NCBI GenBank assembly: GCA_023484045.1
Contig: JAMDAA010000022.1
Span: 4,201 to 68,200, forward strand
Source: Patescibacteria group bacterium
GTDB taxonomy: Bacteria; Patescibacteriota; Microgenomatia; Levybacterales; UBA12049
Reading direction: 5' to 3'
DNA length: 64,000 nucleotides
The stretch's first letter is position 1. Every line of letters starts with the position of its first letter. Under the pieces are notes generated by a model that was not told the origin of the DNA, searched no databases, and worked only from the letters and a program-made list of their open reading frames with translations. Shown here in pieces: positions 3,044 to 57,973 of this stretch. Made by a program: the position numbers and the translations under genes.

Positions 3044-4864
3044 TTAGTTAACCTCAATTTGACCCCGTACTCCCATCGCGCATGTTATGTTGAATATTCC
3101 TGGTTTGCTGGGAGTAAAATCAAATGTTATTGTCTGTCCTTTAGAAAAAACTTCAATTTTGTTTGTCAGACCGGGAACCGTAACGCTTCCCATGCAGCCG
3201 TTACCGTCGTCTTTTGCTTCTATTTCAAATTTTACCGGTTTATTAGCTTTAACAATAAATTTATTCGGAACAATATCATTATCTGCGCTGTATGTAGCCT
3301 TAATCAGTTGGACTTCGCCTTGAGCAGTTACTTCTCCGTTTTTTACAGTATTAGCATTTCCCGCAGTATTTTTTTTAGCTCCGCAGCCGCATCCACTACC
3401 TCCACTACCGCAGGATTGTCCGGCCGGAGGGTTTGCGGCAGTAGTGTTTTGAACATTTTGAGTTGCGACCGACGTTGAAGTGTTGGATTCCGCGGAAGTA
3501 TTATCAATAACAGTAAACGATCCGGTGAACATGCCCATGGCACAAGAAAAACGGATCGTTCCGGCTTCATCGGGATTGAATTCGATAATATTCTCTCCTG
3601 CCTTGAGAGTTTGTTTAATTCCAAGCTTTTGAGAAACGATACTCGCAGTACAGCTGTTGCTGTCTTCAGAAGTAATAATCCACTTAACAGGAACCCCTTT
3701 TTTAATCGTGAAATTATTCGGAATATAACCGGAATTATTCTGTACCATTCGAACTTCCTGGACTCCGTTAACCAATTTTACATTCTCGTCTTGAGAAGAT
3801 GCTTCCGTGCTATTCGATTTTCCAAAAACCTGAGAAACATCAGGGTTGATTCCCAAGAGATTGAAGCCGTTCGAAATATTAAATAGCGCGAGAAATATAA
3901 CAATGATCCCGACTGTTCTAAAAAAGAACTTTGCGGATTGACCTTTAACGACAGATGTTATTCCGCCAACGGTTAACAACCCCGGTGCGGTTCCGATCGC
4001 AAATACACCCATAGTTAAAGCGCCTGCGAGCGGGCTTCCCGTGCTCATCGCGTATAATTGCATCGCCTGCGTAAAGCCGCATGGTAAAAAAAATGTCGAG
4101 GCACCCATTATCGATGCGTTTTTGTTGGTGTACTCAAGTTCGGAGCGGTCTTTTATGCCGAGCATCCTGCTTAGACCTTTTGGCATAGTAAAAGATATTT
4201 TTTTTAGGATCGGAAAAATATCGATAAGCTGGCTGCCCAATAAAAACATAACTAACCCTACAACAACGATCATAATTCCTAAAAATGACGTTGATAGTTG
4301 AAAAAACGATCCTGTATAACCGATTACGCCCCCAAGTATAAAATACGAAATAATTCGTCCGATGTTAAAAAATAAATGGGGTTTAAATTTCTCCATTCCC
4401 GAAGCGTTTGGATATTTTTTTGAAAAATGCGCGGACGCCCCTAAAACTAACCCACCGACAAGCGCCATACAACTCGAGACGCCGGCTGTTAGACCGATAA
4501 GAAGTACGACGGGAAGACTGGAATAATTTCCCGAGATCGAGCTCGTAAGACTAAAAACATCGAGCGTTTTTAATGTTAAAAAAAGAAATAAGACGATCAA
4601 AAAAGCTATGCTTAGCTCGATATAATCATAGTAGTTCCTCGAAAATAATGGAGATTTTTCTTTGCCTAAGGCGTAACCCGCGTTTTCGATAGCAGTTACA
4701 ACGGCATTCCGATTAAGTTGTCCTTCATAATATATTTCTGCGGTTCCGGCCCTGTGGTTCAAAACGGCTTTTTTAATCCCTTGAATTTTTGTGAGTTCGT
4801 CTTCGATCAAAATCTCGCAGGAACGGCAATACATGCCTTTAATATTTATTCTGCATTTTTCCAT
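3044..4864 (-). CDS. polytopic membrane protein: N-terminal HMA domain, permease core, Cys-rich linker and two C-terminal cupredoxin-like domains
   Basis: 606 aa. N-terminal GMYCRSCE HMA motif and multiple Gly-rich TM helices. Linker GQSCGSGGSGCGCG. Two repeated beta-rich domains ending F(S/T)CAMG(M/V)..G..(T/E)V. Confidence 0.6.
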   Translation of the reverse strand: MEKCRINIKGMYCRSCEILIEDELTKIQGIKKAVLNHRAGTAEIYYEGQLNRNAVVTAIENAGYALGKEKSPLFSRNYYDYIELSIAFLIVLFLFLTLKTLDVFSLTSSISGNYSSLPVVLLIGLTAGVSSCMALVGGLVLGASAHFSKKYPNASGMEKFKPHLFFNIGRIISYFILGGVIGYTGSFFQLSTSFLGIMIVVVGLVMFLLGSQLIDIFPILKKISFTMPKGLSRMLGIKDRSELEYTNKNASIMGASTFFLPCGFTQAMQLYAMSTGSPLAGALTMGVFAIGTAPGLLTVGGITSVVKGQSAKFFFRTVGIIVIFLALFNISNGFNLLGINPDVSQVFGKSNSTEASSQDENVKLVNGVQEVRMVQNNSGYIPNNFTIKKGVPVKWIITSEDSNSCTASIVSQKLGIKQTLKAGENIIEFNPDEAGTIRFSCAMGMFTGSFTVIDNTSAESNTSTSVATQNVQNTTAANPPAGQSCGSGGSGCGCGAKKNTAGNANTVKNGEVTAQGEVQLIKATYSADNDIVPNKFIVKANKPVKFEIEAKDDGNGCMGSVTVPGLTNKIEVFSKGQTITFDFTPSKPGIFNITCAMGVRGQIEVN

Positions 4865-43665: not shown

Positions 43666-44014
43666 TCCTCAATTTTCTTTTCAGTGAGTCGGATCTTCGC
43701 TGCGGCTCCGAGATTCGAGACGGATCTCTCTTGGTCATTAAAAAATCCTCCAGAACTAAAATTCAGAGGATTTTTCAGTAAACCCAACGATACCTTGCAC
43801 AGACTGCGCGAATTCGTTGAAACCTTTCTTTCTATGAAGATTTTACCAGATTTAATATGGTGGCTGCAGCCAGAATTGGCCTCAAAAATGCCCGAGAGAA
43901 AAACATAACTCACTTTTGCTCCCTTGTTGTCTCTTTTAAATCTTGTTTATAAACCGATTTTTAATCCCAAATCATGTACAATAACAATTGTTAACTACTT
44001 TTATTTAGGATAAA

Positions 44015-44197
44015 ATGAAGCGGTCGAAACTTCTTACAATTAACCAAGTTGCAAAAATACTAGGGGTTATGTCACCAACTCTTAGACGTTGGGATAGAGA
44101 TGGTAAATTAAAAGCAATTAGGGTAGGAAATAAAAAAGGCGTTGGTGAAAGAAAATATCGCAGGGAAGATATTATTAAGTTTATAACGAAATCCTAA
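44015..44197 (+). CDS. small HTH DNA-binding protein (excisionase/MerR-like)
   Basis: 60 aa. LTINQVAKILGVMSPTLRRWDRDGKL helix-turn-helix. Confidence 0.5.
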   Translation: MKRSKLLTINQVAKILGVMSPTLRRWDRDGKLKAIRVGNKKGVGERKYRREDIIKFITKS

Positions 44198-44304
44198 ACA
44201 TATTCATTGTATATAATTGATAAAAATAGTATGTATAACTCATTTTTATACGAAAAAATGTTGACTATTGACATATAGATTATTTTTTGATACTATCTAA
44301 GCAA

Positions 44305-45516
44305 ATGATTCACTCTTTTACTTGCAAAAACTTTTATTCATTCCCTAAGAAAACAACCATTAGCTTTGTTGTTAATGAAAATGCTCCTGATAATAATGGA
44401 TATCTTAAAACTCCTTCAGGGGTGCGCCTTTCTAAGGCAGAAATTGTCATTGGTTCTAACGCTTCAGGGAAAACCAATCTTCTTAAAATAGTGCCGTTTT
44501 TAAAATGGATTATCCTTGACTCGTTTAACATAAATCCATCAGCACCCATACCGGTACAACCATTTATGTTTAGTGATTTAAAAAACAAACCAACAGAACT
44601 TTCTGTGGAGTTTGAAATTGATGGTAATATCTATCTGTACGAATTTGTTCTGAATAGCAAGAGAATCATATCGGAAAACCTTAAAGTTAAAAATAAAACT
44701 AAGAAACGTGTTACTTATAAAATGCTTTTTTCTCGAAATTGGGACGAAGAAAGCGAAAAATATAACTTTGAAGGCAAAAATTTCGATTTACCAAAAGGGT
44801 TTGAAAATTTACTTCGTTCAAATGCGAGTGTTATTGGTTCTGCTTCGCGATTGAACCATAAAGAAAGTCAAGAAATTGCAAAATATTGGCAACAAGTAGA
44901 GACAAATGTTATTGAAGCTGGTTGGATAGGCGATCATTTATTACTTAATGCGACTCAACAATTGCCAGAGGTATTTAACTTCTATAGCGAAAATGAGTCG
45001 TTAAAGAAGGAAGCTGAAAAGCTATTATCCCGTTTTGACCTGGGTTTAGCAGGATTTGAGATAGAAAAACAAAAACAGGAAAACGGTTTTTTACTTAATA
45101 TAAAGGCTACGCATTTATTGAATGGGCAAAAGCATTATCTTCCTGTTCAATATGAATCTTCGGGTACAAAACAGCTTTTTGTGCTTTTAAAGACAATTCT
45201 GCAGGTTTTAACTAAAGGTGGCGTAGCAATATTGGATGAGTTTGATGTTAATTTGCACCCGGAAATGGTTCTATCGCTTTTTGAATTATTTATTCAACCT
45301 GAAACCAATCCTAAAAATGCCCAAATATTATTTAGCACCCATAGCCACCTAGTCTTAAGCAAGCTAGACAAGTACCAGATAATTCTAACTGAAAAAAATG
45401 ATGATGGTGCAAGTGAATCCTGGCGTTTAGATGAAATGTCTGGAGTTCGTGCAGACGATAATTATTACTCAAAATATATTGCTGGTGCATATGGAGCCAT
45501 CCCAAAAATTAATTAA
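44305..45516 (+). CDS. AAA_21-type ABC/ATPase, AbiLi/RloA-like defence ATPase
   Basis: Walker A GSNASGKTN, Walker B AILDEFDVNLHP, ABC-like SSGTKQL. Promoter-like TTGACA..TACTAT immediately upstream. Confidence 0.7.
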   Translation: MIHSFTCKNFYSFPKKTTISFVVNENAPDNNGYLKTPSGVRLSKAEIVIGSNASGKTNLLKIVPFLKWIILDSFNINPSAPIPVQPFMFSDLKNKPTELSVEFEIDGNIYLYEFVLNSKRIISENLKVKNKTKKRVTYKMLFSRNWDEESEKYNFEGKNFDLPKGFENLLRSNASVIGSASRLNHKESQEIAKYWQQVETNVIEAGWIGDHLLLNATQQLPEVFNFYSENESLKKEAEKLLSRFDLGLAGFEIEKQKQENGFLLNIKATHLLNGQKHYLPVQYESSGTKQLFVLLKTILQVLTKGGVAILDEFDVNLHPEMVLSLFELFIQPETNPKNAQILFSTHSHLVLSKLDKYQIILTEKNDDGASESWRLDEMSGVRADDNYYSKYIAGAYGAIPKIN

Positions 45517-45527
45517 ATGGAAATACT

Positions 45528-46064
45528 ATGTCGAGAACAAATCCTTACAAGAAAAAAAGACGCTCGGCAAACAAGACAATTCTTATTTACAGTGAGGGAT
45601 TACATGAAGAAGTTTTCCTAAAGCACCTAAGAGGTTTATACTCCCAGAACAAAAATGTTGCAATTACTGTCAAAAAAGGTAAAGGCGGAACTGCTGATTC
45701 TCTTGTAATTCAGGCGAATAAAACATTAGGCGCCTTTGATAGAAGAGTCGTGGTATTAGATAACGATAAAAACAAATCCGAAATGCAAAAAGCTAGGCAA
45801 GAAGCAGAAAATAGAAAAATTGAATTATTCGAACATACACCTTGCCTTGAAGCGGTACTATTATCCATATTACGCAAAGGACAAAACTTCAAACAGAAAA
45901 GTTCCAGTTGGTGTAAACAAGAATTTGAATCAAAATATATTGATAGAAAAAAGAGAGGTGAAGTAGACGAATATGTAAAGCTTTTTCCTACGAGTCTACT
46001 GAATAAAGAAATTTCGAAAGTTGCCGAGTTAAAAAGGTTGATTTCTCTTATGCTTGGGGAGTGA
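45528..46064 (+). CDS. RloB/AbiLii-like (DUF4276, TOPRIM-like) partner protein
   Basis: 178 aa. N-terminus KKRRSANKTILIYSEGLHEEVFLKHL fits the RloB pattern (basic stretch plus ILIvcEG..tE). Lies 12 nt after the ATPase. Confidence 0.6.
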   Translation: MSRTNPYKKKRRSANKTILIYSEGLHEEVFLKHLRGLYSQNKNVAITVKKGKGGTADSLVIQANKTLGAFDRRVVVLDNDKNKSEMQKARQEAENRKIELFEHTPCLEAVLLSILRKGQNFKQKSSSWCKQEFESKYIDRKKRGEVDEYVKLFPTSLLNKEISKVAELKRLISLMLGE

Positions 46065-46078
46065 TTAGAAAGCTAAGT

Positions 46079-46208
46079 CTTCGATCCTTGTGGCCAAGAT
46101 GAATCACCAAATAAGTTTACCCTGAGCGAAGCCGAAGGGCTCCCTAACAGTAAGAGCCTGTCCTGAGCGAACGAAGTGAGTCGAAGGATACTTTCACCAC
46201 AAGGATCA
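46079..46208. repeat. intergenic palindromic repeat with CCTGAGCGAAGCCGAAGG motifs
   Basis: Inverted repeat GATCCTTGTGG...CCACAAGGATC flanks two copies of the CTGAGCGAA.CGAAG motif. The same motif occurs at 11158-11205 and 57851-57868. Confidence 0.45.
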
Positions 46209-46285
46209 TTCGGTAAATTGAGTATACCATAAATTTATTCCACCAAAAATTTGTGTTTATCCTATAAGGGTGATAAAATCCCTGC

Positions 46286-47428
46286 ATGAGTTTAGAAACA
46301 CAACCAGTTAGGTACGAAGATAGAGTTGCAACAGTTGTTGGTGGGCGTGGGCAACTAGGAAGCCGAATCGTCAAAGGTATTGATGGATTGGGCTTTAAAG
46401 AAGTAAGGGTTTGTGAAAAGGGAGATCCTTTTACTGATTTTATAAGATTGTCAACAGATCTATTTTTTGCTGTTGATGCAGATCAGGCAAAAGATATGCT
46501 TCACTCAACGCGCGATCTATTGCAGCCACAACATTCTATTCTTGATGGTTCAAGCGTGAAATCACCTTTAATTTCTCTTTATCGAGAATTAGATAATATT
46601 GGCATTAGCGTCTGTTCTACACATTTAGGAGCTGTTCCTGCTCAACCTTGGCGAGGAGTAAAAGTATGGGTTTGTGAAGTTGGCCAAAACTCAGAAAATG
46701 CTAAAAGACTAGCTGTAGATTTATTTTTAGCCAAGAACACATCAATCCAGCAAATCGATATTGAGGATCATCAGAAAGTAGAACAAGATCAATGGTTTAC
46801 TTTTGCTGTTATGCATATTTTTGCTGCAGCTCTGCGAAAATACGGGCTTCCTTTAGAAAGATTTAATGCTTTTGCGACTCTCAATGCAGAACTTGCGACA
46901 CTCCCTTTAGGCCGAACTCTTGGCCAAGGAACAGTTGTTCCATCGGAAGTTTTGCACAGTCAACCCCGAAAGAAAGAGTTTTTTGATGAAATCAGCGCAG
47001 CCTTAGAAGAGTTAAGAGGAAGTTTAGATGATAGAGAAAAGTTACAAGAATTTATGGGACGGAATATTGAATTTCATAATAATCCTACAGGAGTTGTAAA
47101 TTCGGTGTTTAAGAAAGCAGGTATTGTGGGAGCACGAAATGCCAATCTTCGTATGTATGCTTTTAGTTTCCGCACAACTGACGATAGACCAGGAAAACTA
47201 CGGGAGCTGCTTCGTCCATTTTATAATGAGGGTACTAATCTTACTGCAATTGATTCAATGCCTGGAGTAATTACACCTGATGAAGAGCAGCGGGGAGTAA
47301 ACTCAGACAATATTGTGGATTTTGACATAGGTATCGATCCTAAAACAATCAACCCTCAAAAGGCAGAAAGAATAAAGGAAAGATTAAGAGAAATGGGATG
47401 TGTAATTGATAACAGACAAATAATTTAA
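46286..47428 (+). CDS. tyrA: prephenate/arogenate dehydrogenase (TyrA-like) with C-terminal ACT-like domain
   Basis: N-terminal Rossmann VVGGRGQLGS, ILDGSSVKSPLI, IEDHQKV...AVMHIFAAAL. C-terminal FRTTDDRPGKLRELL fits the ACT fold. Confidence 0.55.
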   Translation: MSLETQPVRYEDRVATVVGGRGQLGSRIVKGIDGLGFKEVRVCEKGDPFTDFIRLSTDLFFAVDADQAKDMLHSTRDLLQPQHSILDGSSVKSPLISLYRELDNIGISVCSTHLGAVPAQPWRGVKVWVCEVGQNSENAKRLAVDLFLAKNTSIQQIDIEDHQKVEQDQWFTFAVMHIFAAALRKYGLPLERFNAFATLNAELATLPLGRTLGQGTVVPSEVLHSQPRKKEFFDEISAALEELRGSLDDREKLQEFMGRNIEFHNNPTGVVNSVFKKAGIVGARNANLRMYAFSFRTTDDRPGKLRELLRPFYNEGTNLTAIDSMPGVITPDEEQRGVNSDNIVDFDIGIDPKTINPQKAERIKERLREMGCVIDNRQII

Positions 47429-47480: not shown

Positions 47481-47500
47481 CTGGTGAGCCGGACAGGATT
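47481..47500 (-). other. duplicated 3'-end fragment of tRNA-Lys(TTT), T-loop to CCA
   Basis: ctggtgagccggacaggatt is identical to 56109-56128, the 3' end of the intact tRNA-Lys. Confidence 0.7.
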
Positions 47501-47556: not shown

Positions 47557-47808
47557 CTACATTTCTAGATTCAAAAATCTTTTCTTCATAAATGCGATGC
47601 CTGATCCTGTTTTAAGGTATCGTTCAAATGCCAATGCTTGCCTTTTTGTTTTAAACGCACAATGCCATTCAAGTTGATAATTCAAGTTTGATTTAGTAGA
47701 AAGAACTTTACCTGTCGAGTGTTTTTTTAGACGATTTTTTAAATCAGGGGTATATCCAACATAGTATCTGTTAGTGATGTTATTTCTTAAAATGTAAGTA
47801 TAATACAT
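47557..47808 (-). CDS. small GIY-YIG nuclease-family protein (copy 1)
   Basis: 83 aa. YYTYILRNNITNRYYVGYTPDLKNRLKKH carries the GIY and YIG elements, plus a downstream conserved Arg/Glu. Confidence 0.75.
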   Translation of the reverse strand: MYYTYILRNNITNRYYVGYTPDLKNRLKKHSTGKVLSTKSNLNYQLEWHCAFKTKRQALAFERYLKTGSGIAFMKKRFLNLEM

Positions 47809-47846: not shown

Positions 47847-47986
47847 GTGAACGTTTACGAAAAAATTCGAACCTATTTTAAAAATTAATTACGTCTTGCG
47901 TCAGCTCCTCGCTCGTCCGGCTTCGCCGTCCTCGCTTCGTCGCTATTTCGCTTTCGGCGCGGCGCCCCCACCCGCCGCGCCTCCGC
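47847..47986. repeat. inverted repeat A (about 140 bp), partner A' at 54285-54423
   Basis: The reverse complement matches 54285-54423 with at least one mismatch. The GC-rich body contains the T-loop-like aataggttcgaat. Confidence 0.8.
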
Positions 47987-48720
47987 TCATTTTTTGCGCG
48001 CGCGATTTTCGGGAACTTCGTTCCCCTATAATACCACAAACTGAATCGGCCAAAATGGTGGAAATTGGCCGATTCCAAGTACAAAAACTTCCGGTTCCAC
48101 CACTTTTTTGGTTCTCGCCAAGCCAAACGAAAGAACGAACTGAAGATTTTTCCGGCGGTTCCCGCCGGTTTTTTTGTTTCGCCCCTTCCAAACACTTTAC
48201 TATTGTAGAAGAGTACAAGAGTAGAAGATTAAAGTAGAGGTTATCAAATTTCTATCAACCCACCCACCCGACTGAAATTGTTGGCGGCGACCCCATTCAT
48301 CGCGCGCTGGGCGCCCTAGGGGGCGCCTGCGACAACGGTTTTACTTTTCTAAGAGTTCCTACAGCGCGTCCCTCGCCCCGCTGCGGCGGGGCTTGTCTTT
48401 AGTTTTGACTTTTAAGGCTCGCGCGTTCTGGGGTGTCCGCTTTTCGCCCCCGCCTTCTTTATTTGACCCCTTCCTGCTATTCAGGGCTCGGGTTCACGCT
48501 TAAGGAAATAAACTTTAGAACCCTCGCTCCTGATCCCAATGGCTCGCCCCGCGTTTTCTTTCCCTTAAAGATTATCAAGCGGGGCTCGCGTTAGTCGGGA
48601 ACGCTCGTTAAAGTAAGTGGTAACTCGAAGGGTTTTCTGTCGCGTTCCCTCCTTTTTAGCTGGGTGCTATTGAGGGGGCGGGGGCGGCGGAGCCGCCAAC
48701 AACAAAATGAAAAAAAAAGA
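47987..48720 (+). ncRNA. GC-rich ORF-poor region with many stable hairpins; candidate large structured ncRNA (strand uncertain)
   Basis: About 60% GC against a ~35% background. Only overlapping short ORFs on both strands. Hairpins GGGAACuucgGTTCCC, GAATCGGCCAA..TTGGCCGATTC, GGCGCCCuagGGGGCGCC, GCCCCGCugcgGCGGGGC, GGCGGagCCGCC, and a terminator-like CCGGCGGttcCCGCCGG followed by T7. Confidence 0.4.
48152..48176 (+). terminator. intrinsic-terminator-like hairpin inside the GC-rich region
   Basis: CCGGCGG ttc CCGCCGG followed by TTTTTTTG. Confidence 0.45.
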
Positions 48721-54614: not shown

Positions 54615-56009
54615 ATGAATAAATACATAGCATATTGCCGAAAATCAACCGACGAGAAAGACAAACAGGTGTTATCTATTGAAGCGCAAATTGCAGAACT
54701 CAAAGAATTTGCTAAACGTGATCATTTAGAAGTTGTTGAATTTATTACCGAAGCCAAAACAGCTAAAATGCCAGGGCGTGAGCAATTTGCGCTAGTCTTA
54801 AAGAAAATTGAAAAAGGAGAAGCCCAAGGCATTATAAGTTGGCACCCAGACCGTTTAGCCAGAAATTCAATAGATGGAGGTAAAGTTATCTATTTATTGG
54901 ATACCGGAAAGTTAATAGATTTGAAATTTCCGTCTTTTTGGTTTGAAAATACTCCCCAAGGAAAATTTATGTTATCCATTGCCTTCGGCCAGTCAAAATA
55001 TTATGTGGATAATTTATCGGAAAATGTAAAGCGTGGTAATCGCCAAAAACTTCGTCGTGGTGAGTGGCCTTCAAAAGCACCATACGGATATATTAATAAT
55101 CCTAAAACCAGAGCCGTTGATGTTGACCCCGAATTATCCAAAGTTGTTAAAAAAGCTTTTCAGCTTTTTTCCGAAGGCAATAAGTCGTTTACGGAAATTT
55201 CAAACTTTATGTTTAAGTTTGGGATGAAGCGGGAAAGTTGTGGGAAACCGATTAAAGTTGATCAAATAAAACGGATGTTATCAAACAAATTTTATGTAGG
55301 AATTTTAAAGTATGCCGATGAATATTATGAAGCTTCCCATAAATGTTTCATCTCCAAACAACTTTTTAATGATGTCCAAAAGCAGGTGGAAAAAATCTTG
55401 CGTCCTAGGCAACACGGCCACGATTTTGCTTTTTCCGGTTTAGCCACTTGTGGAGAGTGCGGCGCCGCAATCACGGCAGAACAACACGTAAAACATTACA
55501 AAAATGGTAAATCCCAAACTTTTATCTATTACCGCTGTACTAAAAAGTTAAAGCCCTGTACACAAAAGTATTTACCAGAAGGTGATTTAGAAGAGCAATT
55601 AAAAAAAGTGGTGGGTGATTGCGGCTTGCACCAGGATTGGGAACCCTATTTTGAAAAATGGATGGCCGAAGATGAGAAAAAAGATCAAGCTAATTCAGAC
55701 ACAGAATTAAGAAGGCTTGGCGAGAACCAAAAGGAAATTGAAACAAAACTTAATCGCTTACTTAATGGTTATTTAGATCAAGTGGTGGAACCGGAAGTTT
55801 ACAAACAAAAGAAAAATGAATTATTTGACGAAAAACTAAAACTTACCGAGCAAATTGCCAAAGTTTCAAAGATTGGTTCGTCTTGGCTCGAACCTATGAG
55901 AGAATTCGTAATTAGCGCCTTGCAGGCGCAAAAAATCGCGCGCGTAAAAAATGAGTGCCATGATTTGGCGATCATGGCAAAAACTGTCGGCTCGAACTAT
56001 TCTTTATTT
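54615..56009 (+). CDS. large serine recombinase (resolvase/invertase catalytic domain plus recombinase and zinc-ribbon-like extension)
   Basis: N-terminus YIAYCRKSTDEKDKQVLSIEAQ with the catalytic Ser in the Y.R.S context. About 465 aa to the start of repeat B. The frame stays open through B and antisense tRNA-Lys to 56276. C-terminal Cys pairs CGECG..CTKK. Confidence 0.8.
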
Positions 56010-56116
56010 AACCGGCAACTCCGGCCAGCGTTAAAATATCCCTTTGCAGCGCTCGCCGCGATTGGGGGCGCGGCTCGCGCTGCCCCCACTTCTGCTTCAA
56101 TTTCTTTACTGGTGAG
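56010..56116. repeat. inverted repeat B (107 bp) abutting and overlapping the tRNA-Lys CCA end
   Basis: Perfect reverse complement of 54421-54526. Contains the strong hairpin GGGGGCGCGgctCGCGCtgCCCCC. Ends in CTGGTGA, shared with the tRNA 3' terminus. Confidence 0.85.
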
Positions 56117-56184
56117 CCGGACAGGATTCGAACCTGTGACCAATTGCTTAAAAGGCAACTGCTCTACCGCTGAGCTACCGGCCC
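56110..56184 (-). tRNA. tRNA-Lys (anticodon TTT) with encoded CCA
   Basis: Acceptor GGGCCGG/CCGGCTC, anticodon stem GTTGC/GCAAT, loop CTTTTAA, T-loop TTCGAAT, 3' ACCA. Confidence 0.85.
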
Positions 56185-56272
56185 GCCCACCACGCAAGCC
56201 GAGCATTGCGAGGCGTTGCGGGCAGGCCCGCTCGCCCCATCTTCACACTCAACTTTTGCAGCTTTTTAAATT

Positions 56273-56524
56273 CTAGTTTTCAAAAATTTTCTTCCAAATC
56301 CAGTTTTAAAATATTTTTCTCTTTTAATCGCCTTTTCTTTATCTAAGCACGCTTCGTAATATATTAGTCTTAAAGGTAATCTGCCTTTTGTTGCTAAGCT
56401 TTTTCTTTTTCTGTGAACTTCTAACCTTTTCTTTAAATCTTCTGTATATCCAGTATAAAGCTTACCGTCTTTTTCACTTTTAAGAACATATGTATAAACA
56501 TTACCTTTTCTCGTGATTATATCA
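56273..56524 (-). pseudogene. GIY-YIG nuclease-family gene (copy 3) lacking a canonical start codon
   Basis: Minus-strand frame encodes ITRKGNVYTYVLKSEKDGKLYTGYTEDLKKRLEVHRK...REKYFKTGFGRKFL with an in-frame TAA immediately upstream and no ATG, GTG or TTG. Not in the ORF track. Lies 88 bp upstream of tRNA-Lys on the same strand. Confidence 0.5.
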
Positions 56525-57446: not shown

Positions 57447-57520
57447 GGCGCGTTCGTCTAGAGGCCTAGGACAGATGGTTTTCATCCATCAAATCGCGGG
57501 TTCGAATCCCGCACGCGCTA
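57447..57520 (+). tRNA. tRNA-Glu (anticodon TTC)
   Basis: Acceptor GGCGCGT/ACGCGCT, anticodon stem GATGG/CCATC, loop TTTTCAT, T-loop TTCGAAT. The upstream 57399-57411 partially duplicates the 5' end (gcgttcgtctag). Confidence 0.85.
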
Positions 57521-57547
57521 CACTTCGGCAGGCTCAGTGCAAGCAAT

Positions 57548-57838
57548 ATGAATAAGCCTCAGAGTTGGTATCTTTACATGCTTCTTTGCGATCAGAAATC
57601 TTTTTATGTTGGGATTACTCCTAATCCGAAAGAAAGAATAGCCGAACATAGAAATAAAGAGTGCATCGCGACGAAAGAATTTTCTGATTTTAAAATGGTT
57701 TATTGTGAAAAGTATTTGAATAAATTTGAAGCAGTAAAAAGAGAAAAACAAATTAAAGGTTGGAGTAGAACAAAGAAGCAAATGCTTATTGAAGGAAAAT
57801 TAGGGATAAATACAAGCACTGAGTTTGTCGAAGTGTAA
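57548..57838 (+). CDS. small GIY-YIG nuclease-family protein (copy 2)
   Basis: 96 aa. WYLYMLLCDQKSFYVGITPNPKERIAEH, with a downstream conserved Arg and Glu. Starts 27 nt after tRNA-Glu. Confidence 0.75.
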   Translation: MNKPQSWYLYMLLCDQKSFYVGITPNPKERIAEHRNKECIATKEFSDFKMVYCEKYLNKFEAVKREKQIKGWSRTKKQMLIEGKLGINTSTEFVEV

Positions 57839-57874
57839 AGAGGATGAGAAGTTTACTCTGAGCGAAGCCGAAGA

Positions 57875-57892
57875 GAATCCCGCACGCGCTAC
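57875..57892 (+). other. duplicated 3'-end fragment of tRNA-Glu (T-loop to 3' end)
   Basis: gaatcccgcacgcgctac is identical to 57504-57521 of the intact tRNA. Preceded by a CTGAGCGAAGCCGAAG motif. Confidence 0.7.
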
Positions 57893-57973
57893 CATTACTG
57901 CCTAACCTTCTTGACATTCGTTTTTAAATCTCCATATACTGATAAAGATCTTATTTTTGAAAGGGGGTGAATT

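Follow-up and report, generated by a model that had tools for sequence, protein, structure and literature searches.

The locus lies in a 64,000-nt stretch of a Patescibacteria (CPR) genome, referred to below as the window. Three co-oriented genes, encoding a small HTH protein, an ABC-type ATPase and its partner, occupy 44015–46064, as described in a first-pass annotation of this DNA. Together with the sequences that surround them, the features are as follows.

43684–43908, forward strand: 74-aa ORF, probably a decayed remnant of the C-terminal end of a P0242/P0245-like gene
44015–44197, forward strand: HTH gene, 60 aa, pI 11.4, HTH_17/MerR/excisionase type
44250–44261, unstranded: degenerate copy of the ACAA-N4-TTGT palindrome, ACGAAAAAATGT, 2 mismatches
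44268–44296, forward strand: promoter-like site of the ATPase and putative nuclease operon, 10/12 consensus matches
44305–45516, forward strand: ATPase ORF, 403 aa from the ATG at 44305, AbiLi-like ABC-type (AAA_21/AAA_15)
45528–46064, forward strand: partner ORF, 178 aa, pI 9.8, AbiLii/RloB-like Toprim protein
46082–46217, unstranded: conserved non-coding element of about 135 nt, right edge of the variable site

The ATPase, the partner and the upstream HTH protein

The ATPase frame is open from a TTG at 44287. Starting at the ATG it encodes 403 residues, and not the 404 first annotated; an identical Patescibacteria protein in NCBI (P0001, 100%) also has 403. The protein matched the PADLOC AbiLi profile at 1.1e-73 (246 bits), Pfam AAA_21 at 1.6e-30 (107.6 bits, cut-off 27) and AAA_15 at 1.8e-10 (41.5 bits, cut-off 32.1). 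It carries a Walker A motif (VIGSNASGKTN), a Walker B motif (VAILDEFDVNLHP), an ABC-like signature (YESSGTKQL) and an H-loop (STHSH). Walker A G50–N58, signature Y283–L291, Walker B D311–E312 and both H346 and H348 are invariant among 20 homologues, and the catalytic residues K56, D311/E312 and H346/H348 are intact. The AF2 model built from these 20 homologues is of low confidence (pLDDT 60) and gives no base for claims on oligomerisation or on the partner interface. A PDB sequence search with the ATPase profile returned marginal PtuA matches only (E 2e-4).

The partner gene begins after an 11-nt gap and is co-oriented with the ATPase gene. Its product starts with MSRTNPYKKKRRSANKTILIYSEGLHEEVF; this N-terminus, like the Walker motifs and the ABC-like signature of the ATPase, had been noted correctly in the first-pass annotation, and the homology to Toprim/RloB proteins suspected there was borne out by profile searches. 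Pfam RloB matched above its gathering score (35.2 bits, cut-off 31.5, E 1.8e-8), a modest score in which the profile is covered in part (1–146 of 195), and PADLOC AbiLii (PDLC02338) matched at 1.6e-13. The AF2 model of the partner is confident (pLDDT 91) and matches the Toprim domains of OLD and GajA, while a PDB sequence search with the partner profile gave no match. E23, G53, G54, D78, P105 and C106 never vary in a diverse alignment that reaches down to 28% identity, where conservation is at least 90% at G24, D80, E108 and K130. The Toprim glutamate (E23) and the DxD motif (D78/D80) are intact, and the partner clade has in addition an invariant basic N-terminal tail, MSRTNPxKxKRR. We know of no RloB-type Toprim protein for which a structure has been solved or the substrate identified.

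The HTH protein matched Pfam HTH_17 (1.7e-11), MerR_1 (6.8e-8) and the TIGR01764 excisionase domain (3e-8). Among 80 loci, its gene was found 5' of the pair only in L001, which has the same sequence, and in L002, the closest relative (74% identity). The presence of an HTH gene upstream had been noted correctly, but it is not a conserved part of the system; it is a lineage-specific neighbour outside the conserved two-gene core. Its role may be local regulation, or it may survive as an excisionase-like relic from the decayed integrative element that houses the cassette.

Promoter, palindrome and spread of the gene pair

The pair had been proposed to have its own promoter, and a promoter-like site was indeed found. 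It is composed of a -35 hexamer TTGACA (44268–44273), a 17-nt spacer and a -10 hexamer TACTAT (44291–44296), the latter extended as TGaTACTAT with the TG at 44288–44289. Its 10/12 score is the best in a 3-kb region. Since the same architecture recurs 5' of the ATPase gene in dozens of related loci, the site is more than a chance match to the consensus. The -10 hexamer ends 8 nt before the ATPase ATG, so that transcription, starting at about 44303, would give an operon mRNA with no leader or almost none; no Shine-Dalgarno sequence was found 5' of this ATG. The promoter layout is identical in L002, and the short spacing is also seen in L003 and L009. Other CPR loci keep the palindrome, the -35 and the -10, but have a leader of 25–35 nt.

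In related CPR loci the ACAA-N4-TTGT palindrome stands 5–7 nt 5' of the -35 hexamer. Exact copies occur in 26 of 48 CPR loci, and 42 of 48 have a copy with no more than one mismatch, compared with background frequencies per 130 nt of flanking DNA from the same loci of 0.0035 (exact) and 0.097 (at most one mismatch). The palindrome is degenerate in the window and in L002, although conserved elsewhere. Because promoter and palindrome travel with the pair without a linked DNA-binding gene, a protein of the module itself could bind the palindrome. The candidate might be the Toprim protein, through its basic tail MSRTNPxKxKRR. The fuller idea, that the CPR clade is a self-contained, autoregulated mobile cassette in which one module protein binds ACAA-N4-TTGT and makes its own expression depend on the complex's state, is speculative and we hold it to be unlikely. 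If true, it would constitute a layer of regulation that has not been described in AbiL, PARIS or OLD systems, and the clade would stand out as a compact "short-RloB" variant adapted to the streamlined genomes of episymbionts.

The partner ORF lies directly 3' of the ATPase gene in 73 of 80 related loci, and plasmid homologues of about 28% identity also adjoin genes annotated RloB. Loci bearing the names of many CPR lineages have ATPases of 54 to 90% identity; some records carry non-CPR names (Pseudomonadales, Methanosarcinales and others), which may be binning errors. The flanking genes vary by locus; they are mostly housekeeping genes, with restriction-modification, recombinase and integrase genes scattered among them. 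No close relative was found on viral contigs: those in IMG/VR have at most 27% identity. As a cassette complete in itself, promoter included, the pair moves between unrelated genomic contexts, and its CPR clade has spread across many Patescibacteria lineages by horizontal transfer. Compared with L002, dN/dS is 0.034 for the ATPase gene and 0.094 for the partner gene, and the pair is under strong purifying selection.

The variable site and its flanks

The module is located at a variable site of the genome, an integration hotspot. Its GC content (0.32–0.35) is only a little lower than the mean of the window (about 0.37). The first-pass annotation had placed it in an accessory patch, and the comparison with syntenic loci agrees. 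In L091 and L092, which contain close relatives of the gene downstream of the module, the module is absent between two conserved flanking sequences: the site is empty in L092 and holds other cargo in L091. This cargo comprises four ORFs with no PADLOC match and only a sub-threshold HNH_5 match; the site was therefore not called a defence hotspot. Besides the pair itself, no recognised defence gene was found in the immediate neighbourhood of the module.

On the left, homology between the window and L002 (80%) begins at 43791, and the 74-aa ORF lies at the edge of this common DNA. It is probably the decayed C-terminal remnant of a gene like those of P0242 and P0245, its full-length relatives, and short related sequences are found at the corresponding place in L091 and L092. 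In the window/L002 alignment many of the differences are synonymous and the stop codon is common to both copies; this coding-like substitution pattern argues against a hidden RNA gene. The remnant had no match in Pfam, and its identity is inferred. The product of the P0242/P0245-like gene may correspond to the C-terminal part of a serine-recombinase-like protein. The P0242 gene in L094 runs into a tRNA-Lys(ttt), and the serine recombinase of the window (54615–56276) likewise runs into a tRNA-Lys, where an integrated element lies downstream of the module. The link between the remnant and serine recombinases is indirect: the layouts are alike, and both genes overlap tRNA-Lys in the same way.

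On the right, the element of about 135 nt can be aligned in the window, L002, L091 and L092, the last two without the module, and homology of the window to L091 and L092 begins at 46184. It contains an 11-bp perfect inverted repeat, GATCCTTGTGG at 46083–46093 and CCACAAGGATC at 46197–46207, with the two arms 103 nt apart. A REP-like palindrome had been annotated here: the inverted repeat is real, but it belongs to this conserved element and is not a dispersed repeat of REP type. Of the element, only an internal 18-mer, CTGAGCGAAGCCGAAGGG, recurs elsewhere in the window, once, at 57858. The fold of the inverted-repeat stretch is no more stable than that of shuffled sequences (z = -0.76), and the element had no Rfam match at E<=1. 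The window copy holds two short insertions (11 and 33 nt) with CTGAGCGAA..GAAGG motifs. The flanking relic and the element were also considered as a disrupted tRNA or tmRNA and this was rejected: ARAGORN remained without a hit even at relaxed thresholds, and the one Rfam match at E<=10 was T-arm-like, 18 nt long and located in L092.

Relation to ATPase–Toprim systems and proposed mechanism

AbiL (AbiLi/AbiLii) was reportedly described by Deng et al. in 1999 on the Lactococcus lactis plasmid pND861. The window pair has the same gene order, an AAA_15/21 ABC-type ATPase followed by a RloB-type Toprim protein, and both proteins match the PADLOC AbiLi/AbiLii models, a likeness by profile. It differs from AbiL in being chromosomal and in a CPR genome instead of on a lactococcal plasmid, in the short form of the partner (~178 aa) with its invariant tail MSRTNPxKxKRR, and in the conserved promoter and palindrome that the CPR clade possesses. 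RloA/RloB are said to have been reported by Miller et al. in 2005 from type I hsd loci of Campylobacter jejuni. The Pfam family RloB (PF13707) derives from these C. jejuni proteins. They too combine an ATPase with a RloB-type partner, the class to which the window partner is assigned above the gathering score; their genes lie in a restriction-modification locus, whereas the window pair and most related loci are outside such loci. The AbiLi/AbiLii (RloA/RloB) identity first proposed is supported by the profile scores given above. The pair is a further AbiL/RloAB-type module and no new system, and the AbiL family belongs to a wider anti-phage group that joins an AAA_15/21 ABC-type ATPase to a Toprim (OLD-type) nuclease.

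Within this group, PARIS (AriA/AriB, OLD class 4) is, like the window pair, split between an ABC ATPase as sensor and a separate Toprim nuclease, and it supplies a working model in which a sequestered nuclease is released upon sensing. However, the PADLOC AriA profile matched the ATPase at 8.9e-33, much more weakly than AbiLi, and the PARIS partner is of the DUF4435 type while that of the window is of the RloB type, for which neither Pfam nor PADLOC returned DUF4435 or AriB at E<=1. The folds of AbiLii and AriB are reported to superpose poorly (PMC13064643). P2 Old, class 1/2 OLD proteins and Gabija GajA also use an ABC ATPase as regulatory module, but there the ATPase and Toprim parts are fused in one polypeptide, and Gabija requires the UvrD-like helicase GajB. 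OLD class 1/2 and Gabija were rejected because the window has two separate ORFs and no adjacent helicase gene. Septu (PtuA/PtuB) was rejected as well, since the partner is a Toprim/RloB protein without HNH; the PADLOC PtuA match of the ATPase is weak (4.5e-11). The NetFlax pairs (Ernits et al. 2023, PMC10440598) share the two-gene node of AAA ATPase and Toprim-OLD/RloB protein, which supports a toxin-neutralisation relationship; the validated pairs are from Firmicutes.

Taken together, we consider it quite probable that 44305–46064 encodes a member of the AbiL (AbiLi/AbiLii, RloA/RloB-like) family in which an ATPase restrains a Toprim nuclease for abortive-infection defence. By analogy, the ATPase is proposed as the sensor and regulatory subunit and the partner as the nuclease effector. 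The ATPase would oligomerise and keep the basic 20-kDa Toprim protein inactive, as in PARIS, P2 Old and AAA/TOPRIM toxin-antitoxin pairs, until a phage-derived cue sensed through the ATPase, a trigger likewise taken from analogy, releases or opens the nuclease. Metal-dependent catalysis through E23, D78/D80 and E102/E108 would then cut host or phage nucleic acid, either tRNA or another RNA (compare AriB and Old) or DNA (compare GajA), and the infected cell would be arrested. AbiL confers abortive infection in Lactococcus and has been grouped with PARIS as an ABC ATPase plus TOPRIM system (PMC13064643; PMC11464382). P2 Old and AriB are both tRNases (10.64898/2026.07.10.737580; PMC11464382).

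The same architecture could serve mainly as a toxin-antitoxin or addiction module, with a Toprim toxin and an ATPase antitoxin that stabilise mobile DNA and have no dedicated anti-phage role. Pairs of an AAA antitoxin and a TOPRIM_OLD toxin have been validated experimentally in neutralisation assays (PMC10440598), the window shows a decayed integrative-element context with a recombinase-like relic upstream and an element at tRNA-Lys downstream, and other defence genes are not adjacent. Such behaviour is nevertheless compatible with abortive-infection defence, PARIS being both (PMC13064643); moreover, the founding member AbiL was isolated through a phage-resistance phenotype (PMC13064643), and most loci have housekeeping surroundings with no recognisable mobile element to stabilise. 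We regard this reading as doubtful. A three-gene system that includes the HTH protein as an integral regulator or sensor, such as a MADS-like MAD1/MAD3/MAD4 core or an AbiL variant under HTH control, is in our view very unlikely. The HTH gene, 107 nt upstream of the pair and in the same orientation, is kept with it in L002 (dN/dS 0.16); PADLOC mad1 matched the HTH protein (4.3e-13) and mad3 the ATPase (7e-12), and the degenerate palindrome of the window and L002 would fit a change of regulator. But the gene is missing from 79 of 80 other loci, its HTH_17 match is generic and the promoter of the pair sits 3' of it. MADS itself was rejected on NCBIfam scores far below the cut-offs (MADS1 16.5 bits against 80, MADS3 37.7 against 420), and no methyltransferase or other MADS gene was found near the module.

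Hardly tenable is the proposal that the pair is a restriction-modification accessory, in the "restriction-linked ORF" sense of RloA/RloB, or a housekeeping SMC/RecF-type repair ATPase with its partner. The name RloB does come from type I hsd loci (PMC13064643; PMC10440598), a few related loci have N6_Mtase, ResIII, DpnI or GmrSD neighbours, and UvrA and UvrC are encoded near the module in the window. Context and scores have already largely refuted this explanation: no restriction-modification gene was found within about 8 kb on either side, N6 methylases account for only 2 of 77 upstream neighbours of related loci, and the module is missing at the syntenic site of L091 and L092, a poor fit to a housekeeping role. 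The possibility that the ATPase classes with SMC, RecF or RecN proteins, raised at the outset, was rejected on the same absence and on scores below the cut-offs (SMC_N 21 bits against 40, RecF 13.9 against 172).

As an AbiL-type module, the pair belongs to systems that are known to defence-finding tools. The CPR clade is compact (403 + 178 aa), strongly conserved and widely transferred with its promoter and palindrome, and so makes a convenient minimal model for the biochemistry of ATPase–Toprim defence. It also suits questions on the phage resistance of ultra-small episymbionts and on gene flow among CPR genomes. Taken alone, the window represents an ordinary annotation, that of an accessory defence cassette of known type within an integration hotspot. 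The initial statement that reports of defence systems from CPR-type genomes are rare is dated: in a 2025 survey, CPR genomes had fewer systems each, yet more of them per Mb (PMC12259885), and the pair itself has more than 1,000 database relatives, mostly labelled CPR.

Gene layout, family and active sites of the module

The module pair and the sequences just upstream are arranged in the window as follows.

44015–44197, same strand as the module pair: HTH gene, 60 aa
44250–44261: degenerate copy of the palindrome described below, ACGAAAAAATGT
44268–44296: strong promoter-like site (TTGACA, 17 nt, TGaTACTAT)
44305–45516, co-oriented: ATPase gene, 403 aa from the ATG at 44305 to the stop at 45516; the ORF is opened by a TTG at 44287
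45528–46064, co-oriented: partner gene, 178 aa, starting 11 nt past the ATPase stop

The first-pass annotation gave the ATPase 404 aa, a length corrected here to 403; the motifs it quoted were all found in the sequence. P0001, an NCBI "ATP-binding protein" of 403 aa from a Patescibacteria group bacterium, is identical to the window ATPase, and the same three genes plus the downstream gene are present in a Logan contig (L001).

The ATPase matched PADLOC AbiLi (1.1e-73), Pfam AAA_21 (1.6e-30) and AAA_15 (1.8e-10), in agreement with its description as an AbiL-like AAA_21 protein. An SMC/RecF identity was rejected, both profiles scoring below cut-off (SMC_N, 21 bits vs 40; RecF, 13.9 vs 172). The proposed RloB/TOPRIM-like homology of the partner was recovered by profile searches, with Pfam RloB at 35.2 bits (gathering score 31.5, narrowly exceeded) and PADLOC AbiLii at 1.6e-13. 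Its AlphaFold2 model, built with 37 homologues, is confident (pLDDT 91, pTM 0.86). When 1.84 billion representatives were searched with a profile, 882 relatives emerged, 495 of them at E≤1e-10; nearly all are 165–185 aa in length. In a diverse subset down to 28% identity, E23, G53-G54, D78, P105 and C106 are invariant and G24, D80, E108 and K130 at least 90% conserved, a pattern that reads as the Toprim Glu and DxD signature with additional acidic ligands. In the ATPase, the Walker A, ABC signature, Walker B and H-loop residues are all invariant. Judged by these conserved residues, both enzymes appear catalytically competent. These data establish the family of the module and the integrity of its active sites.

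In the best-supported model, an ATPase oligomer would form a complex with the basic 20-kDa Toprim nuclease and restrain it; a phage cue would probably trigger its release, and the freed nuclease, acting on a presumed substrate, would arrest growth. Among related nucleases, GajA cuts DNA. AbiL has been placed among ABC-ATPase + TOPRIM systems by a lactococcal Abi review (2026) and by PARIS papers, where a PARIS-like working of AbiL is explicitly left open (PMC13064643, PMC11464382). AAA-ATPase + TOPRIM_OLD pairs behave as antitoxin-toxin pairs (PMC10440598), and AriB (PMC11464382) and, according to a 2026 preprint, P2 Old (10.64898/2026.07.10.737580) are tRNases that are released or opened upon sensing.

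Distribution and promoter of the module

One genome per species was scanned, yielding 80 loci, and partners were detected by tblastn. A partner ORF lies directly 3' of the ATPase in 73 of them; one of the other seven is truncated by a contig end and six belong to the most distant group. A clade of 49 loci (54–90% ATPase identity) includes records named Gottesman-, Levy-, Falkow-, Magasanik-, Moran-, Pacei-, Taylor-, Doudna-, Peregrini- and Saccharibacteria, and a few with non-CPR names. The second group (33–44%) is mostly Verrucomicrobiota, and plasmid homologues, at about 29% identity at most, adjoin genes annotated RloB; no close relative was found in IMG/VR. Compared with L002, the 90%-identical closest relative, the ATPase has a dN/dS of 0.034 and the partner one of 0.094. 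Flanking genes vary among loci and are mostly housekeeping; resolvases, methylases, GmrSD and restriction enzymes turn up here and there, and an integrase once.

Just 5' of the ATPase gene, a TTGACA/TTGCAA hexamer is followed by a -10-like hexamer and preceded, at 5–7 nt, by a 12-bp palindrome, ACAA-N4-TTGT. The palindrome is exact in 26 of 48 CPR loci and within one mismatch in 42, compared with a background per 130 nt of 0.0035 and 0.097, respectively, in flanking DNA of the same loci. The promoter of its own attributed to the module is thus backed by conservation across loci as well as by consensus match. In the window, the promoter-like site stops 8 nt 5' of the ATPase ATG and no Shine-Dalgarno sequence was found upstream of this codon, so that the mRNA is likely leaderless or near-leaderless. 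The cassette is self-contained, its upstream DNA being conserved despite the locus-to-locus change of neighbours. The spacing of the palindrome to the -35 is fixed (L003–L049, e.g. L017:5855-5935), yet the pair has no linked gene for a DNA-binding protein.

The module is notable for its compact "short-RloB" partner with an invariant N-terminal basic tail, for its spread over CPR at high identity and for the conserved palindrome-promoter that travels with the two genes. The view that CPR defence systems are seldom reported is out of date: these genomes carry fewer systems per genome but at a higher density per Mb (PMC12259885). In the same study AbiL occurs in 0.79% of aquifer MAGs and is missing from the defence families that reach 1% or more of CPR genomes.

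The HTH gene and the variable site

The HTH gene is present upstream as first described; it is not a conserved part of the module. Its product is of a generic HTH_17/MerR/excisionase type, its PADLOC mad1 match fails the curated NCBIfam cut-off (16.5 vs 80), and among the 80 loci it adjoins the pair elsewhere in L002 only; it is therefore a lineage-specific neighbour. The palindrome is degenerate in precisely these two loci. The protein could act as a local regulator of the cassette; the gene could equally be an excisionase-like leftover. On another CPR contig (L094:12813-13601), a 54-aa HTH_17/MerR gene is followed by a gene of 107 aa and one for a DUF4325 protein, and small HTH_17 genes may be common at the head of CPR accessory cassettes.

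Metagenome relatives of the downstream 380-aa gene (L091, 94% identity; L092, 82%) have DNA homology to the window that starts at 46184, just past the module. A variable site is bracketed by two short sequences, both of them conserved.

Content of the variable site
Left bracket: relic, window 43774–43893
Right bracket: element of ~135 nt with an 11-bp inverted repeat, window 46082–46217
Window: HTH, ATPase and Toprim genes
L002: the same three genes as in the window; outer genes on either side differ from the window's
L091: two unannotated genes, minus strand
L092: empty site, brackets ~30 nt apart

The accessory location proposed for the module thus holds, the site being empty in one syntenic relative and occupied by other genes in the second. 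The two L091 genes encode 250 and 270 aa; just 5' of its relic are two more, one of 247 aa with a weak HNH_5 match and one of 187 aa. A PADLOC search of these four (L091:244-3417) gave zero matches, and they are possibly uncharacterised accessory or defence genes.

The relic has a coding-like substitution pattern and a stop codon common to the window and L002. P0242 and P0245, which are related to it and more complete, are short proteins; the P0242 gene extends into tRNA-Lys(ttt) in L094, as does the large serine recombinase gene of the window (54615–56276). We infer that the relic is a decayed fragment of an integrative element.

What had been called a REP-like palindrome is the right-hand element, conserved, not a dispersed repeat and present also without the module. 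This non-coding sequence of ~100–135 nt, CGATCCTTGTGGCC...GCTCCCTAACAGTAAGGTACTTTCACCACAAGGATCATTCGGTAAA, is common to the window, where it has two short insertions, L002:2886-2985, L091:~3445-3545 and L092:~4105-4205; it matched no Rfam family. In three of the four loci the 380-aa gene lies 3' of it; in L002 it follows the RloB-like gene, with no 380-aa gene after it. The 380-aa product (46286–47428, +) is a conserved, uncharacterised CPR protein with an N-terminal GxGxxG Rossmann-like motif; a Pfam search gave nothing beyond a faint ACT hint (E 0.08).

Putative mobile DNA nearby in the window

A 20-nt exact direct repeat (47481–47500 and 56109–56128), corresponding to the tRNA-Lys(ttt) 3' end (TGGTGAGCCGGACAGGATT..), flanks ~8.6 kb. 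At the right end, the full-length recombinase (Resolvase + Recombinase + Zn_ribbon) abuts and overlaps tRNA-Lys (56110–56184); in L091, tRNA-Lys directly follows the 380-aa gene. The stretch looks like an integrated element inserted directly 3' of the gene downstream of the module. Inside it, 47880–48700 has a GC content of 0.49 vs ~0.37 elsewhere and many GC-rich hairpins; neither a convincing ORF nor, at E≤1, an Rfam match was found, and this segment could be structured RNA or decayed DNA.

A 96-aa GIY-YIG ORF (57548–57838, +; Pfam 5e-16) lies directly 3' of tRNA-Glu (57447–57521), whose 3' end, aatcccgcacgcgcta, recurs past the ORF (57858–57895 region). Right before this repeat is an 18-mer, CTGAGCGAAGCCGAAGAG, found also inside the element 3' of the RloB-like gene (46122–46139). 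A second small GIY-YIG ORF occupies 47557–47808 (-). The arrangement may be that of a small mobile element of the GIY-YIG kind and a motif associated with it.
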